Below are positions 2,799-61,061 of a DNA stretch of 64,000 nucleotides, piece by piece; position 1 is the first letter of the stretch, and each line of letters starts with the position of its first letter. Location: assembly GCA_045597805.1 (NCBI GenBank), contig JAZLKW010000062.1, positions 112,004 through 176,003 of the forward strand, given 5' to 3'. This stretch comes from Candidatus Avispirillum sp. (lineage in GTDB: Bacteria; Bacillota; Clostridia; Oscillospirales; CAG-272). The notes beneath the pieces are model-generated. The model saw only the letters and a list, made by a program, of their open reading frames with translations, did no database searches and was not told the origin of the DNA. The position numbers and the translations under genes were made by a program.

Positions 2799-2810
2799 TA
2801 TTCCATGAAA

Positions 2811-2836
2811 AAAGGACTACTTTGCAGTCCTTTTTC
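2811..2836 (+). terminator. Rho-independent terminator after 2358..2798
   Basis: Hairpin AGGACT-ACTTTGC-AGTCCT followed by a T-run. Confidence 0.65.
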
Positions 2837-2979
2837 ATTTGATTGCGTATTTGTTGCCGTTATTGCGCTTGTTATTGATACAGCATATGTTATTGTCGCA
2901 ACCCGGCTGATACTGAAAACACCTAAAACAATTTGCGGTATATACTTCACCCGAAAAATCTGATAAACTCAAAAGCACA

Positions 2980-3102
2980 GGAGGTAAGTTTGAAAACAAA
3001 ATAAAAACAAATCGGATGTATGCTGTTTTCAAACCCCATTTGTTCCTTTTGCCGCCATAGGGCGGCAAAAGGAACAAATGCAAAGAAAGGATAATCATTA
3101 AT
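2980..3102 (+). promoter_or_regulatory. Conserved structured 5' leader, copy A (P1 hairpin 2988-2998/3024-3034; perfect 20-bp P2 hairpin 3037-3056/3061-3080; SD AAAGGA; ATG 3103)
   Basis: Near-identical blocks recur upstream of the aldolase start at 5395-5540 on the minus strand, in the same orientation relative to the downstream gene. Both copies share a 36-nt invariant core, CAAATCGGATGTATGCTGTTTTCAAACCCCATTTGT. Confidence 0.6.
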
Positions 3103-4419
3103 ATGAATTACGAAAATGCAAAAGACGTTTTGCCCGAAGAGCTTTTGAGAGAATTACAAAAATACGCCGCCGGAAAGCTCATTTACGTCCCCCGTGACGA
3201 CGGGCGGCGCAGATGGGGTGAGGCGAGCGGATACAGAAAAGCTCTCCGTGAGCGTAACCGCAGCATAATACGGGAATTTGCCGACGGCGCCGATGCGGAT
3301 TCCCTTGCTGATATGTATTATCTGACTCCTGAAACAATACGAAAAATCGTATATTCCAAAAAGGAGAAAGAAAAAATGGAGCTTGAAAAAATATTTGAGT
3401 TATACTCGGATAATGAGCCGCTGTCTTATGAGATTTTTGAGGAAGAAGATTATAACGACCCATGGTGGGGCGAAATTTACTTCAAACGTTATACGGTATC
3501 TTTCCCCGAAGGAAAAACCGAAATAAACATTTTTTCTCATTACCCTCTTATGTGTCCGGAAAGAATTGAGCAAATGTCACGGGTAATTGAAGCATACGCA
3601 GGTCTCGGATATGAATGTCCGAAAGTCCTTGAAAACAAGTACGGCAAGCTTTCACGGACTGTTGAATTCAGCGGTCATGAATGTTTGGTTTTTGCAACGG
3701 AATGTGCCTCTTGTGTACCCATTGATTACAGAAAAAGCCAAATCAATACAGATGAGCTGATGATGCTTTCCGCAAAGGTTGCAAATATGCACTTGTCAGG
3801 GACAGTAAACAGTACATGGGCAATTTTTGACAAGAGTACTGCTGTTCTGGACGGGTGCGACGACTGGATAGACGACAATGTTTTCGGTGAATTAAAGGAT
3901 GAGGTCGTCGGAAGATTTCCGGGATTGGCGGATAAATACAGCAAACTGGAAAAAGCATATTCCGAGAATAAAGCAAAAATAAAAAAGGTTTGGGAGTCTC
4001 TTCCCACGTCATTATTCTGTCCGACATTCTATAACGGCAGATATATTGAAGAAAACGGCAAGCTAAAAGGTCTTACCGACTTTTACGACGGCGGCAGAGA
4101 AATTTGTATACATTATTTCATTATCAGCAGTCTGACTTTTATAGGGCTCGACAAGATATTTGCATATAATGATGAGGGTTTTGCCCGTGCTGTGGAAAGG
4201 GTAAAGAAAGATTTGAAAACCATATCATCCGTTTACAAATTCACAAACGAAGAAATCCGGATCGCTCCCGCGATTTTCAAAATCGATTTTCTGGGAATGA
4301 GATTTTACGGAGAGAACGGCGAACTGTGGTACGGCGACGAGAAAACCGTTTCCGAAACGCTTGATTTCATTATCGAAAAGCTATCCGCAGATTATGATTT
4401 TTCGGAGTGCATGAGATAA
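3103..4419 (+). CDS. Fusion protein: N-terminal Mor/CD3324-like helix-turn-helix domain plus C-terminal aminoglycoside-phosphotransferase/kinase-like domain (catalytic loop looks degenerate)
   Basis: 438-aa ORF with an ATG start. The N-terminal ~90 aa (LPEELLRELQKYAAGKLIYVP...YYLTPETIRKIVYSKK) resemble small Mor/CD3324-type DNA-binding proteins as I remember them. The C-terminal region has an APH-like layout ending in LKGLTDFYDGG. Confidence 0.45.
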   Translation: MNYENAKDVLPEELLRELQKYAAGKLIYVPRDDGRRRWGEASGYRKALRERNRSIIREFADGADADSLADMYYLTPETIRKIVYSKKEKEKMELEKIFELYSDNEPLSYEIFEEEDYNDPWWGEIYFKRYTVSFPEGKTEINIFSHYPLMCPERIEQMSRVIEAYAGLGYECPKVLENKYGKLSRTVEFSGHECLVFATECASCVPIDYRKSQINTDELMMLSAKVANMHLSGTVNSTWAIFDKSTAVLDGCDDWIDDNVFGELKDEVVGRFPGLADKYSKLEKAYSENKAKIKKVWESLPTSLFCPTFYNGRYIEENGKLKGLTDFYDGGREICIHYFIISSLTFIGLDKIFAYNDEGFARAVERVKKDLKTISSVYKFTNEEIRIAPAIFKIDFLGMRFYGENGELWYGDEKTVSETLDFIIEKLSADYDFSECMR

Positions 4420-4525
4420 ATAATTTTGAGTTTGGCAAGCTGCGCTCGATAATGCGCCCAAAGGACGCAATTTATGGCGAGCTCCGCTCACCAAACTCAA
4501 ATTTGTACTTCGTCAGCAAGCTGAA

Positions 4526-4554: not shown

Positions 4555-5394
4555 TTACACTTTATTATCAGATCCGCAGAGCTTTATCTTATGGCAGCAA
4601 AGGTCATATACAGCTTGTCTGCCGGGACCCATGAATTTCTTGGGGTCGATGATCTTTTCGTCTGTGAGCGCTTCCCTTACAGCCTTGGTCATAGCCGCAC
4701 GAAGCTCTGTTGCGAAATTCACCTTGCTTATTCCAAGCTCGATGGTTTTTCTTATCATCTCATCGGGTATGCCGCTGCCGCCGTGGAGAACGAGCGGTGC
4801 GTCTATCTTTCCGGCGATGGTGGAAAGGAGGTCGAAATCGAGCTTCGGCTCGCCCTTATAGAAGCCGTGTGCGGTGCCGATCGCAACTGCGAAAATGTCG
4901 ATTCCCGTGCGGGTAAAGAAATCCACAGCCTCGGCGGGATCTGTATACGCTATCGCCGCGGAATGTCCGTCCTCTTTTCCGCCGACAGTACCTAATTCCG
5001 CTTCAACGGTTATTCCCTTTTCGCGAGCCTTTGCGACAACTTTCTTTGTGACCTCGATATTTTCCTCATAAGGAAGCTTTGAGCCGTCGATCATGACGGA
5101 GGTATAGCCCTCGGTGAGTGCGGCTTCCACTCCCTCATAGCTTTCGCAATGGTCAAGGTGAAGTGCCACGGGGACACTCGCTCTTTCCGCTTCTGCCTTT
5201 ACCATGGCGACTGCCTCGTGAAGCGTCAGGTATTTCACGGTGGAGGGGGTCGTCTGTATCATCACGGGAGATTTCATATCCTCTGCCGCTTTGATTATCG
5301 CCTGCACCATTTCAAGGTTTTCGGCATTGAAGGCAGGGACTGCATAATGTCCCTCTTTTGCTTTTTTTATCATTTCAAGGCTTGTTGTGTACAT
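4555..5394 (-). CDS. Class II ketose-bisphosphate aldolase (fructose/tagatose-bisphosphate aldolase family)
   Basis: Motifs AVPAFN, HLDHC and LVLHGGSG. The start is moved to ATG 5394 (MYTTSLEMIKKAKEGHY), which has an AAAGGA SD. The longer tracked ORF (to 5502) reads through the conserved leader. Confidence 0.85.
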   Translation of the reverse strand: MYTTSLEMIKKAKEGHYAVPAFNAENLEMVQAIIKAAEDMKSPVMIQTTPSTVKYLTLHEAVAMVKAEAERASVPVALHLDHCESYEGVEAALTEGYTSVMIDGSKLPYEENIEVTKKVVAKAREKGITVEAELGTVGGKEDGHSAAIAYTDPAEAVDFFTRTGIDIFAVAIGTAHGFYKGEPKLDFDLLSTIAGKIDAPLVLHGGSGIPDEMIRKTIELGISKVNFATELRAAMTKAVREALTDEKIIDPKKFMGPGRQAVYDLCCHKIKLCGSDNKV

Positions 5395-5540
5395 ATTTAT
5401 GTTTATTCCTTTCTTTGCATTTGTGCCGTTTTTTTGCAAGGCAAAAAAATTCAAAGTCGGATTTATGCTTTGAAAGGCACAAATGGGGTTTGAAAACAGC
5501 ATACATCCGATTTGGATTTACTTTGTTTTCAAACTTTACT
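5395..5540 (-). promoter_or_regulatory. Conserved structured 5' leader, copy B (P1 5534-5524/5498-5488; P2 outer stem 5485-5476/5427-5418 enclosing a branched insert)
   Basis: It has the same conserved blocks as 2980-3102. It starts at the kinase stop codon and ends at the aldolase ATG. Confidence 0.6.
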
Positions 5541-6483
5541 CCAGATTATTCTCTTCAATCATTTTTTCCACGTTCTCGCGGGAGATCTTACCCTCCATGG
5601 GGCCGAACGCCGCTGTATTCAGCGATGCCGCCGCGGTAGCGAATTTAGCGGCGTCGAGAAGGCTCTTGCCCTCAAGAAGTCCGCAGAGGAACGCACCGTC
5701 GAAGCTGTCGCCTGCGCCCGTTGCGTCAACGGGAGTTACGGCATAAACGCCGAACTCGATTCTCTCGTCTCGTGTATAAATGACACAGCCCTTTTTACCG
5801 TTTTTCAGAGCGATGATCTCAAGCTGAGGCTTTGTGGCGAACAGTTCTTTTACTGCTTCCTCGATGTCCTCCTTTCCGGAGAGCATTCTGAGTTCGCTCT
5901 TTCCGGGCATGAATACCGCGGTCATATCCATGATCTCATTTACCAGATCCATGGATTCGGGGTCCTTCATAAGCTCGGGGCGGATATTGGGGTCAAAGGA
6001 AACTTTTGCTCCCTTTTCAAAAGCTTTTTTCGCGGTATCAACGATCCTTCTGCCGAATTTCAGTTCGGACATCACGGAGCAGCCCATAATGTGGAAGAAT
6101 TTCAGCCCGTCAAGCTTTTCTTCCGCAGGAGCGGGTGCGAGTACGGCGGGAGTATTCCCGATGTGGAAAATAAACTTTCGGTCGCCGTTTGAATAATACA
6201 TTACAAACGCACAGCCTGTGGAAATGCGGTCGTTCTTAATGATACACGATGTATCAACTCCGTCTTTTTCAAGGCGGTCTGTAAGGCATTTTCCGAAATC
6301 GTCGTCGCCGACACCGCCTACGATAGCCGCTTTATGACCGAGGCGGGCTACGGTATCAATGAAAATCGCGGGTGCGCCGGAAGGATAGGGTCCTTTGAAT
6401 ATTCCGGGTTTATCGAGGGGCATATCAACGTCGCCGCGCATTATCTCGACGATTATCTCGCCCATCGTCATTATTTCGTTCAT
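5536..6483 (-). CDS. PfkB-family sugar (ketohexo)kinase
   Basis: PfkB signature DATGAGDSFDGAF. The start is moved to ATG 6483 (MNEIMTMGEIIVEI), which has a GAAAGGTG SD. The tracked N-terminal extension runs into the upstream repeat. Confidence 0.8.
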   Translation of the reverse strand: MNEIMTMGEIIVEIMRGDVDMPLDKPGIFKGPYPSGAPAIFIDTVARLGHKAAIVGGVGDDDFGKCLTDRLEKDGVDTSCIIKNDRISTGCAFVMYYSNGDRKFIFHIGNTPAVLAPAPAEEKLDGLKFFHIMGCSVMSELKFGRRIVDTAKKAFEKGAKVSFDPNIRPELMKDPESMDLVNEIMDMTAVFMPGKSELRMLSGKEDIEEAVKELFATKPQLEIIALKNGKKGCVIYTRDERIEFGVYAVTPVDATGAGDSFDGAFLCGLLEGKSLLDAAKFATAAASLNTAAFGPMEGKISRENVEKMIEENNLE

Positions 6484-6540
6484 ATTTTTCACCTTTCTGA
6501 TAGCCCTCCCAGGTAAGGGAGGGTGGACCGCTTGCGGTGG

Positions 6541-6962
6541 GTGAGTCGTCATCAGCACAATACTGAATCATATAATGTCCAGCTTGTCCCGAAGATTAAT
6601 ACATACACCGTCAAAATTTCGGTCAATATCTTTGTTGGTATATCTAATTACTGTAATTCCCAATTCATTTAGCTCAATGTCACGTTTTTCATCAGCTTGC
6701 CAATTTTCAAGTTTTCCGTGCTGTGAGCCATCTATCTCTATTACAGTTTTCTTTTCCGGTATATAAAAATCTACTATGTATGTTAAAAGACAATACTGTC
6801 TTTTGACGGAGAAAGGGAGTTCCTTCAAAAAATCGTACCATAAATGTTTTTCCTGCGGAGTCATATTCTTTCGCAGAGTTTGTGCATTATGTTTGTTTTT
6901 TGTATTGTACTGATACATTTTCGCCTCACGAAAGCATAATTGTCGTGCAGATGACGACTCAT
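6541..6962. mobile_element. AT-rich DUF559 endonuclease cassette bounded by 18-bp imperfect inverted repeats (6541-6558 GTGAGTCGTCATCAGCAC; 6945-6962 GTGCAGATGACGACTCAT)
   Basis: The repeats match 16/18 as reverse complements. The interior is visibly more AT-rich than the flanking genes. GC hairpins lie just outside at 6504-6523 and 6982-7001. Confidence 0.4.
6568..6918 (-). CDS. DUF559 (Vsr-like fold) endonuclease-domain protein
   Basis: 117-aa ORF starting at ATG 6918 with a GAGG SD. It has the typical DUF559 layout: LRKNMTPQEKHLWYDFL, YIVDFYIPEKKTVIEIDGSQH and VIRYTNKDI. Confidence 0.75.
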   Translation of the reverse strand: MYQYNTKNKHNAQTLRKNMTPQEKHLWYDFLKELPFSVKRQYCLLTYIVDFYIPEKKTVIEIDGSQHGKLENWQADEKRDIELNELGITVIRYTNKDIDRNFDGVCINLRDKLDII

Positions 6963-7011
6963 CCATAACGGAGTGATTCCCCCTTCCCCCGCCGGGGAAG
7001 GCAATCGGGAA

Positions 7012-59877: not shown

Positions 59878-60977
59878 AAATTTTTAAGGCAATCGGAGTA
59901 ATAGTCTTCAAGCTCCCTGACGCAGATGTCCATGTTGAACGCGCTGTTTTGCATCTGCAGAAACGTCGCCGCACGGTCGCGCGTCAGATTTTTATCTATT
60001 TCGTATGCCCACACAAGTGGGTCATCTATGGGCAGGAAGGTCACGGCGTCCGTTATCTTACACTCCTTTGTGACCTTATCGGAGATGATCTGAGAAAGTC
60101 CGGCAGCCGACGCTTCCACGGACACCACGGGAAGTCCCTCGTACAGGGACGGAAGAAGAAATATATCGAAAGCGCTGTACATCTTAGAAGTATCGGGAAG
60201 GACTCCTATGAAATACACGGAGCCGTAGAGATTCTTTTTCTTTACGTACTCTCTGACCTCATTCATGGTAGGTCCCTCACCGACGAGGAGAAGCACGCTT
60301 TCATTATTGATCTTCTTATATTCCGCAAATATATCGATAAGAAACAGGTGGTTTTTCTGGGTCATGAATCTGCCTATATGACCCACCACCGTTTTATTTT
60401 CAATTTCAAGCTCACGGCGGATCTGTATTCTCGCAGACTCGTCGAATCTGAATCTTTCGATGTCTACGGCATTTCGGAACACAGTGACTTTTCCGCATTT
60501 GAATGCTTTATCGCCGTACATCCATCTGCCCGAAAGTTCCGAGCAGGCGCACCATTTGTTCGCAAGCCTCGGTGCGATGAGGCGCAGTACCTTTTTCAGG
60601 AGGTCACGTTTGAACTCATATTTCGATGAGGTCGAATGATTATGAAGTATTCTTACGGGAACGCCGCAGGTTTTTGCCGCCCACAGGGGGAGGACCGACA
60701 GCGTACTCGTATTACAATGTATTATTTTATAGTTCCCTTTTCTTATTATTACTCTGAGGGCTTTCAGATACTTACGGGGATGGGACATGGCAGGTATTTT
60801 GAAAGCGCGGGCGCCCATTTGTATGAGTTCCTCAGGCACATCTCTGTCCGAACGGTCTTCATAAACGATATCGTACTGGAATTTCGATTTATCGAGAGCG
60901 GAGTAATATGAAAACACTATGCTTTCGATACCTCCAGATCCGATCTTTCCCATTACACACAGTATACGTTCTGCCAT
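59874..60977 (-). CDS. Glycosyltransferase family 4 (GT-B)
   Basis: EGLPVVSVEASAAG block. ATG 60977 follows AAAGGA. ATGA overlap with the downstream GT gene. Confidence 0.8.
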   Translation of the reverse strand: MAERILCVMGKIGSGGIESIVFSYYSALDKSKFQYDIVYEDRSDRDVPEELIQMGARAFKIPAMSHPRKYLKALRVIIRKGNYKIIHCNTSTLSVLPLWAAKTCGVPVRILHNHSTSSKYEFKRDLLKKVLRLIAPRLANKWCACSELSGRWMYGDKAFKCGKVTVFRNAVDIERFRFDESARIQIRRELEIENKTVVGHIGRFMTQKNHLFLIDIFAEYKKINNESVLLLVGEGPTMNEVREYVKKKNLYGSVYFIGVLPDTSKMYSAFDIFLLPSLYEGLPVVSVEASAAGLSQIISDKVTKECKITDAVTFLPIDDPLVWAYEIDKNLTRDRAATFLQMQNSAFNMDICVRELEDYYSDCLKNL

Positions 60978-61000
60978 ATTCTTATCCTTTCTTACCAATA

Positions 61001-61029
61001 CACCCCGCCTTGCTCGGCAAGGCGGGGTG
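61001..61029 (-). terminator. GC-rich hairpin downstream of the scaffoldin-like gene (weak U-tract)
   Basis: 11-bp stem CACCCCGCCTT/AAGGCGGGGTG. Confidence 0.45.
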
Positions 61030-61061
61030 CGGGGTCAATTATTCAGCTATTGGTTTACTAT

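Follow-up and report, generated by a model that had tools for sequence, protein, structure and literature searches.

Two structured leaders in a 64-kb window of the Candidatus Avispirillum sp. genome (contig JAZLKW010000062.1) are tentatively interpreted here as copies of a repeated 5'-leader cassette of Avispirillum-like uncultured gut Clostridia. "The window" denotes the whole 64-kb stretch, and coordinates are positions in it unless a locus is named. Copy A precedes a gene with a CD3324-family helix-turn-helix (HTH) domain, and copy B lies between a pfkB-family kinase gene and the aldolase gene fba. According to this interpretation, to which we assign a probability of about 45%, the cassette was inserted sporadically before unrelated genes, giving them hairpins and a strong ribosome-binding site (RBS). 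As proposed, it would consist of 3 parts: a hairpin, P1, whose 11-bp arms are invariant in sequence and whose loop has about 25 nucleotides (nt); a second, modular hairpin, P2; and an extended Shine-Dalgarno (SD) sequence, AGAAAGGA, from which a short tail leads to the ATG of whichever gene follows. The anatomy of the element, its recurrence as a family, its rule of orientation and position, the compensatory changes and the insertion polymorphism were observed directly. From these we infer transcription through the element, an effect on stability or translation, and a way of spreading.

Anatomy of the element and its wider family

Copies A and B share 2 long blocks. The window contains exactly 2 occurrences of the 36-nt block CAAATCGGATGTATGCTGTTTTCAAACCCCATTTGT, at 3008-3043 on the plus strand and 5479-5514 on the minus strand, and it was matched in 0 of 100 shuffles. 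The 18-nt block ACAAATGCAAAGAAAGGA is likewise found at exactly 2 places, 3074-3091 (+) and 5407-5424 (-). In a pairwise alignment the likeness spans the leaders from GGAG to the ATG, and none is seen in the coding sequence. The common blocks are not attributable to chance. An original prediction for this DNA had described the 2 leaders as the same element, oriented in the same way to downstream genes of unrelated coding sequence, and this observation is confirmed. The P1 hairpin with its 25-nt loop, likewise predicted, was located in both copies, as were the arms of the perfect 20-bp hairpin that the variable P2 interior was said to form in copy A. The predicted distance of 12-14 nt from the SD block to the ATG needs correction; measured from the end of the GGA block, it is 11 nt in copy A and 12 nt in copy B (Table 1).

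The wider family was found with a metagenome scan whose pattern held the palindromic P1 arms only (GTTTGAAAACA-N18-32-TGTTTTCAAAC) and was blind to strand and genes. The scan returned 28 loci, and 5 of them (L092, L094, L100, L097 and L115) also carry the CCC linker (J-CCC), the P2a helix CAUUUGNNCC/GGNNCAAAUG, an SD block of the form (C)AAAG(A/G)AAGGAAU, and a tail reaching the ATG. Three of these copies (L092, L094 and L100) belong to one ENA assembly, ERZ825137, in which their contigs have similar coverage, and the other 2 contigs come from a second assembly. The genes that follow are bioY, cysE, a heavy-metal P-type ATPase gene, pnp and dnaJ; the element recurs, then, before further unrelated genes of other organisms. 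Orientation relative to the downstream gene is the same in all 5 metagenome copies as in A and B, so that all 7 independent copies share one orientation and abut a start codon. Additionally, a single metagenome contig, L001, carries an orthologue of copy A. All 8 copies terminate at the start codon, with the SD block 7-13 nt upstream.

The copies are 87-148 nt in length (about 85-150 nt for the cassette), with a GC content of 0.32-0.43. Two of them lie in the window; outside it each occurs singly, always 5' of a gene. What lies upstream differs from copy to copy. A sigma-70 promoter (TTGACA-17-TATAAT) stands outside the element in L092, about 35 nt before P1, while L094 starts 12 nt after a stop codon, L100 follows a terminator, and the end of dnaK lies 174 nt ahead of L115. 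In copy B, the leading GGAGTAA is the final codons and stop of the upstream pfkB-family kinase gene, and therefore copy B is the entire intercistronic spacer; the stop codon TAA, at 5538-5536, is 1 nt ahead of P1. The 5' flanks of copies A and B, GGAG(G)TAAG, agree at 7 of 9 nt. Since the flank of L094 matches this sequence equally well, the likeness proves nothing about copy A deriving from copy B along with its 5' flank.

The interior of P2 is the most changeable part. L001, L092, L094 and L100 share an interior made of UUUUGCCGC, a loop, GCGGCAAA and then the internal loop AAAUUCAG. The 3' strand of P2 in L001 retains a 10-nt internal loop (AAATTCAG...) that is gone from copy A, where the interior has collapsed; in copy B the interior has been replaced, and in L115 P2 is absent altogether.

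A covariance model of the element, R1, detected no further copy in the window and 92 loci (723 kb), including about 80 aldolase loci of related genomes. A second model built from P2 and the SD alone gave nothing convincing; it picked up only partial look-alikes at L015:1-64 and, at 60975-61035, a generic hairpin with an extended SD. In this clade genes are commonly preceded by the extended SD AGAAAGGA. The site at 60975-61035 (-) has a G+C-rich hairpin, CACCCCGCCTTG..CAAGGCGGGGTG, then GTAAGAAAGGATAAGAATATG, before another gene; its layout is hairpin, extended SD and A-rich tail, with no homology to P1 or P2a. Leaders of DUF4838 genes in L015 (1-64), L018 (1-60) and L021 (1-16) look like the family's 3' half, with GGCGCATGTGCAAAGAAAGGAATGGATGTTGTCATG in L015 and AATGATCGTAAATATG in L021. 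It is possible that these are truncated relatives, the locus ends cutting off the region where P1 would lie.

Table 1. Positions of the two copies, their parts and the adjoining genes in the window
Feature	Position	Strand	Details
Copy A, upstream of CD3324-family (Mor-like HTH) gene	2980-3102	+	covariance model R1, 130.5 bits
Copy B, occupying the pfkB-fba intercistronic spacer	5395-5539	-	covariance model R1, 135 bits
P1 hairpin, copy A	2988-3034	+	11-bp stem, 25-nt loop; arms GTTTGAAAACA (2988-2998) and TGTTTTCAAAC (3024-3034)
P1 hairpin, copy B	5488-5534	-	arms 5534-5524 and 5498-5488, 25-nt loop
P2, copy A	3037-3080	+	perfect 20-bp hairpin, arms 3037-3056/3061-3080
P2, copy B	5418-5485	-	10-bp closing helix CATTTGTGCC/GGCACAAATG around two small hairpins
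Extended SD, copy A	3084-3091	+	AGAAAGGA, 11 nt from ATG 3103; mean unpaired probability 0.83
Extended SD, copy B	5407-5414	-	AGAAAGGA, 12 nt from ATG 5394
Gene downstream of copy A	3103-4419	+	438-aa protein, N-terminal CD3324-family/Mor-like HTH domain
Gene downstream of copy B (fba)	4555-5394	-	class II fructose/ketose-bisphosphate aldolase
pfkB-family gene upstream of copy B	5536-6558	-	tagatose-kinase-like

Presence and absence of the element at orthologous sites

The organism is related to Candidatus Avispirillum metagenome-assembled genomes from animal guts. Copy B belongs to a minus-strand operon encoding a DUF4838/dockerin protein, D-psicose 3-epimerase, a DUF559 protein, a tagatose-kinase-like PfkB protein and the class II aldolase. 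About 30 related genomes keep the order DUF4838, epimerase, pfkB, fba, and about 25 relatives lack the element upstream of fba. L003, the closest relative (aldolase 96% and kinase 96.5% identical), has a pfkB-fba spacer of about 8 nt. This spacer is 1 nt long in L083, 4 nt in L084 and 44 nt in L082; most of the remaining relatives have 20-45 nt. In the genomes with short spacers the terminal CTG GAG codons of the kinase gene sit at the expected position of the aldolase SD, suggesting translational coupling.

Other species carry long sequences of a different kind at the same spot. The spacer of L002 is 155 nt long and is unrelated or very diverged; its architecture is similar to that of the element, as an 8-bp hairpin with a 30-nt loop comes right behind the stop codon and is followed by CCC and a 10-bp helix, but it scores only 8.6 bits. 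L005 (3716-4000) and L008 (3766-4000) have in common an element of about 130 nt with 13-bp ends resembling terminal inverted repeats (TIRs), GTCATCCTGAGCG...CGCTCAGAATGAC, and a tRNA-T-arm-like GGTTCGACTCC; it has no match in Rfam. Yet another sequence fills the spacer of L006 (829-1079). These different inserts indicate that the pfkB-fba spacer is an insertion hot spot and that copy B is an insertion.

The same pattern of absence is seen at dnaJ. Model R1 did not detect the element in the dnaK-dnaJ spacers of L116, L117 and L118, whose DnaJ proteins are 76-82% identical to that of L115. As a separate observation, these spacers (L116 60-160, L117 9895-10000, L118 100-181) have a different conserved hairpin in common, AAGTTTTTGGGGA(G)GGTGCGG...TTTTTTCAAAAAGGGGTTCCCGC, immediately ahead of the dnaJ SD; it may be another leader-type structured element of the clade.

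The CD3324-family gene behind copy A is accessory, with nothing at the syntenic site in L002. In L082 the region syntenic with about 2800-3100 of the window (6279-6445, minus strand) holds a tetrahydrofolate riboswitch (84 bits) followed by an ECF-S transporter gene. The SD and start of that transporter gene, GGAGGTATTTTATTTTGAAAACAAAAAC, resemble the 5' end of copy A, GGAGGTAAGTTTGAAAACAAAA; this 13-mer match at a syntenic position may be a recombination scar or due to chance. Where homologues of the 438-aa protein (about 38% identity) are encoded, the leaders are unrelated. In the comparison with L001, the upstream region, the leader and the first ~113 codons of the CD3324-family gene (window 2826-3440, L001 34-650) are 93-100% identical; identity is about 60% beyond these codons, and there is no likeness upstream of 2822. 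Overall the 2 proteins are 66% identical, that of L001 having only 299 aa. This accessory gene is a mosaic: its 5' module is conserved, and the C-terminal part varies.

Because the element is present or absent at orthologous sites, it must have been inserted or duplicated there. Judged by these sites, the cassette is not an ancestral regulator of the genes to which it is attached. Against the empty sites of L003, L083 and L084, the filled site shows no more than an ambiguous TAA(A) at its two borders, where the context is A-rich.

The polymorphism could also be expected of purely selfish DNA, that is, a hairpin-bearing non-autonomous mobile element similar to miniature inverted-repeat transposable elements (MITEs) or palindrome-associated transposable elements, which an insertion preference or survivorship placed between a start codon and the stop codon or promoter ahead of it, without any RNA function under selection. 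The hot spot with its other inserts, including the L005/L008 element, fits such an origin, as do the modular composition of the family with P2 missing in L115 and the near identity of the 2 intragenomic copies (36/36 and 18/18 nt), while copies of other organisms differ. However, the inverted repeats of the element are internal rather than terminal, no clear target-site duplication was found, and no plasmid or phage record was matched. The constant orientation in 7 of 7 copies, the inclusion of the SD block in the conserved unit and the likeness up to the ATG are unexpected of neutral insertions, and 2 G-U pairs of P2a function on the sense strand only. We consider a purely selfish origin quite unlikely.

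Copies A and B are inverted repeats, with a 70-nt arm of 91% identity and a 25-nt arm, which flank the convergent genes 3103-4419 (+) and 4555-5394 (-) and end exactly at their start codons. Such an arrangement could serve as a substrate for recombination, in which the 2.3-kb segment 3103-5394 would be inverted and the CD3324-family and aldolase genes would exchange their upstream contexts. Nevertheless, the pfkB-fba arrangement is the same in all relatives, L001 has the same order of upstream region, copy A and CD3324 gene, and family members elsewhere occur singly; no recombinase was noted adjoining the element, most of the window being unannotated. A role in inversion is extremely improbable.

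Two further features of this region were noted. Between the convergent genes there is a 27-nt inverted repeat, 81% complementary, at 4422-4504, which is probably a shared bidirectional terminator. The DUF559 (endonuclease-like) gene, at 6568-6966 (-) between the psicose-epimerase and kinase genes, is missing at that position in all related operons examined, and the L011 homologue is located downstream of the aldolase gene instead; it looks like an inserted selfish gene.

Structure, conservation and possible role in the mRNA

Both copies fold more stably than their shuffled counterparts, with z scores of -8.1 for copy A and -6.4 for copy B, and 0 of 200 shuffles fold as well. P1 and P2a are recovered by RNAalifold. 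With P2b added, 91.6% of pair cells are paired, compared to 31-46% when the 3' partners are slid by 1-3 columns, and 7 of 500 shuffles reach the observed percentage. Double-sided changes occur at 4 pairs of P2 (A-U to G-C; U-A to A-U or C-G; G-C to U-A; G-C to A-U), and the 2 G-U pairs in P2a are workable on the sense strand only. P1 stood outside this test, its arms being fixed by the search pattern. The mean unpaired probability of the SD is 0.62-0.90 in 6 of 8 copies, and no conserved helix sequestering the SD was found across the 8 copies. P2 is followed by CAAAGAAAGG without a U-tract, and no terminator-like site was called in 2980-3102 or 5395-5539. A promoter scan found no promoter-like site in either copy.

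Several other functions were considered for the sequence. TTGAAA in the P1 arm was rejected as part of an internal promoter, no copy having a -10 box at workable spacing. A leader peptide, MKTK* (TTG AAA ACA AAA/G TAA), can be read in copies A and B and is not conserved in the others. A longer open reading frame, ..(M)x(H/Y)xVFKPHLxLLP(Q/P).. (..AVFKPHL.LLPQ..), was also dismissed; it has no SD, an in-frame stop lies further upstream in L092, and L097 has a frameshift. Its frame, that of GTT-TTC-AAA (3014-3058 in copy A), can be read in A, B, L094 and L100 beginning with an ATG of the P1 loop, and in L092 beginning with a TTG; it ends within ~10 nt of the main ATG in L092 and L100 and ~22 nt before it in L094. 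This frame is probably a by-product of nucleotide conservation. Finally, TATGCTGTTTTCAA resembles a type II CRISPR repeat; this identity was rejected, as there are just 2 non-arrayed copies with no spacers.

Searches of databases placed the element outside described families. Rfam 15 gave no match on copy A or copy B at the gathering threshold, and none on the 6 related copies. At E<=10 the only match over a copy was a nonsense microRNA on the opposite strand of copy A (25.6 bits, compared to a gathering threshold of 100), and the other sub-threshold matches lie outside both copies. The exact 36-mer is absent from 185,579 species genomes, a 21-mer from JGI metagenome contigs and viral contigs, and the P1 pattern from viral contigs. 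BLASTN of copy B gave no match to plasmids and only chance matches of 24-29 nt to phages, mostly in tail-fibre genes, which lends no support to an insertion sequence (IS) end or to a plasmid or phage origin. A literature search on the P1 arm sequence returned only unrelated eukaryotic primers. The element is real, outside Rfam and without a counterpart found in the literature.

The absence of an Rfam match would make a riboswitch here a new class. In such a metabolite- or ion-sensing riboswitch, P1 and P2 would be the aptamer and the SD region the expression platform; the structured leader at a fixed position from the start codon and some covariation in P2 agree with this, and an anti-SD-like CCUUU read in the P2 5' strand could in principle pair with the SD. 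However, there is no conserved unpaired core, as nucleotides of the loop and interior vary or are deleted. The perfect 20-bp P2 of copy A leaves no room for a switch, no terminator follows, and predicted ensembles leave the SD mostly open. The genes form no coherent set, and close relatives do not have the element at their orthologous fba and dnaJ loci. By sequence comparison, the conservation pattern is the opposite of that of an aptamer, with fixed stems beside loops and interiors that are variable or dispensable (P2 interiors are about 28% identical). A riboswitch is unlikely, and to a very marked degree.

These results divide the original prediction of an undescribed cis-regulatory RNA. 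A real structured element, fixed to start codons and recurring elsewhere, has emerged, and its lack of a known RNA class still holds; the riboswitch-like part is not supported by the conservation of the element or by its lack of a terminator and of a conserved SD-sequestering helix. The covariation that had been asked of it was found at 4 P2 pairs and is only modest against shuffles. Coordinated control of the 2 genes, which the prediction had suggested, was not borne out: the downstream genes (CD3324-family, fba, bioY, cysE, P-type ATPase, pnp and dnaJ) have no common theme, and close relatives lack the element at fba and dnaJ. The alternatives that would have dismissed the element, a high-copy repeat scattered regardless of start codons or an IS end, found no support either, since 7 of 7 copies abut start codons and the plasmid and phage searches gave no meaningful match.

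P1 shows the strictest conservation. Its arms are identical (100%) in 7 of 7 independent copies and the P2a arms are largely fixed, while the P1 loop is only ~52% identical between copies. Neutral drift at the rate of the loop would almost never spare 22 arm positions, so the sequence of the P1 stem, beyond its pairing, is constrained. This would be explained by a regulon leader, in which P1, with or without P2a, is a sequence-specific site for an RNA-binding protein or small RNA co-ordinately controlling translation or stability, like a post-transcriptional operator. It is consistent with such a site that 7 of 7 copies are fixed in their orientation and in how far they lie from the SD. On the other hand, no candidate factor was identified, the attached genes share no function, and their association with the element is not kept even among close relatives; moreover, the search pattern accounts for part of the apparent invariance of P1, by ascertainment. 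We regard a regulon leader as rather unlikely.

In the leader cassette that we favor, the element would act in cis within the mRNA. Two stable hairpins would stand directly 5' of a strong and mostly single-stranded SD, shielding the RBS from upstream sequence, and they could guard the downstream cistron against 5'-to-3' decay or mark a processing site. The cassette, placed at its sites by insertion or duplication, would give the attached gene an autonomous and efficient translation start. For copy B, this start would take the place of the tight pfkB-fba coupling suggested by the 1-8 nt spacers of the nearest relatives. It probably stabilises or insulates its cistron.

Several points weigh against this interpretation. 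The RNA-level role of the cassette is one that we infer purely. The covariation is modest, as 32 of 500 shuffles have at least as many compensatory cells as were observed, and folds predicted with coding sequence pair the SD in L092 and L100, through contacts with non-conserved coding sequence. No signature of mobilisation was found, with neither TIR, nor target-site duplication, nor linked transposase. The independent copies known number 7, and 5 of them were found with a pattern that fixes the P1 arms. The strict 11-bp arm sequence beside loops that are ~50% diverged suggests a sequence-specific partner, which a stabiliser or insulator does not need; being unexplained by the cassette, it keeps factor binding alive.

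The conserved P1 stem hints at a dedicated partner. A bolder proposal, which we hold to be rather unlikely, is that P1 is a hairpin recognised by its sequence and that the family is either a new post-transcriptional regulon of uncultured gut Clostridia, in which housekeeping genes at scattered sites (fba, dnaJ, pnp, cysE, bioY and others) have their translation starts controlled by one RNA-binding factor, or a new kind of mobile translation-start cassette, mobilised via its hairpins and targeted to stop/start junctions. A dedicated partner of P1, if found, would open a new layer of regulation or mobility in these organisms.

If the cassette interpretation is correct, Gram-positive gut anaerobes carry repeated portable leaders, with 2 hairpins and a strong RBS, grafted before unrelated genes. 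Inside operons such cassettes would substitute for translational coupling, and they would offer a cheap evolutionary route for rewiring expression levels. They would also call for caution in riboswitch-discovery pipelines, because they mimic conserved structured 5' untranslated regions, and they could supply a ready-made RBS or insulator part for genetically intractable Clostridia.

Comparison with known systems

Several classes of element can be set apart from the cassette by simple features. As regards MITEs, its ends (..AAG|TTTG.. and ..AAAT|ATG) do not form inverted repeats, a target duplication could not be clearly made out, and insertion independent of gene starts is at odds with 7 of 7 copies in the same orientation at a start codon. 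With respect to repetitive extragenic palindromic (REP) sequences and bacterial interspersed mosaic elements (BIMEs), the cassette is A+T-rich, single and always 5' of a gene. The missing U-tract after P2 speaks against an intrinsic terminator or attenuator, and the mostly unpaired SD in 6 of 8 copies against an RNA thermometer. With riboswitches and protein-binding leaders the cassette shares a structured 5' leader fixed to the start codon and some compensatory changes; it differs from them in its fixed stems and variable loops and in having neither an expression platform nor a conserved gene association.

Among interspersed repeats, pneumococcal BOX, Neisseria Correia, E. coli REP/BIME, B. 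cereus bcr1 and the mycobacterial interspersed repetitive units (MIRUs) are structured repeats that are co-transcribed and alter mRNA fate. The cassette resembles them in being multi-copy, hairpin-forming and modular, as in the A, B and C boxes of BOX, and in its insertion polymorphism among close relatives. MIRUs are also intercistronic and orientation-specific within operons, a position and orientation rule that the cassette shares. However, these repeats mostly occur in either orientation, often at 3' ends or between convergent genes, which is not true of the cassette, and we know of none defined by a fixed junction with an SD and start codon. No TIR or association with REP-associated tyrosine transposases was seen for the cassette.

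A functional analogy only is offered by the 5' stabilisers and RBS insulators of Firmicutes, which include the leader hairpins of ermC and aprE, the cryIIIA STAB-SD and the processing of cggR-gapA. As in these, a stable hairpin is found directly 5' of a strong accessible SD, and an operon-internal site would allow independent expression of a downstream glycolytic gene. The Firmicutes examples are single-locus features, whereas the cassette is a repeated sequence family.

REP/BIME, integration host factor sites and Correia promoters are covered in a review (Delihas 2011, PMC3184786). The closest described kind for the cassette is found in the same review: Neisseria REP2/CREN and the IR-A/IR-B repeats of Borrelia plasmids, 120-150-nt intergenic repeats without terminal inverted repeats, present in several copies per genome (PMC3184786). 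Besides 2 internal inverted repeats, predicted as stem-loops, they contain an RBS, an ATG and their own promoter, and they directly precede unrelated open reading frames (PMC3184786). The cassette differs in having no recognisable sigma-70-like promoter inside it and in that its copies can be intercistronic (1 nt after a stop codon for copy B, 12 nt for L094). It belongs to another phylum with no evident sequence relation, the comparison being one of architecture and not of the REP2 sequence. By architecture, the likeness lies in the lack of terminal inverted repeats, in 2 internal stem-loops, here P1 and P2, and in an RBS carried along that abuts the ATG of unrelated open reading frames.

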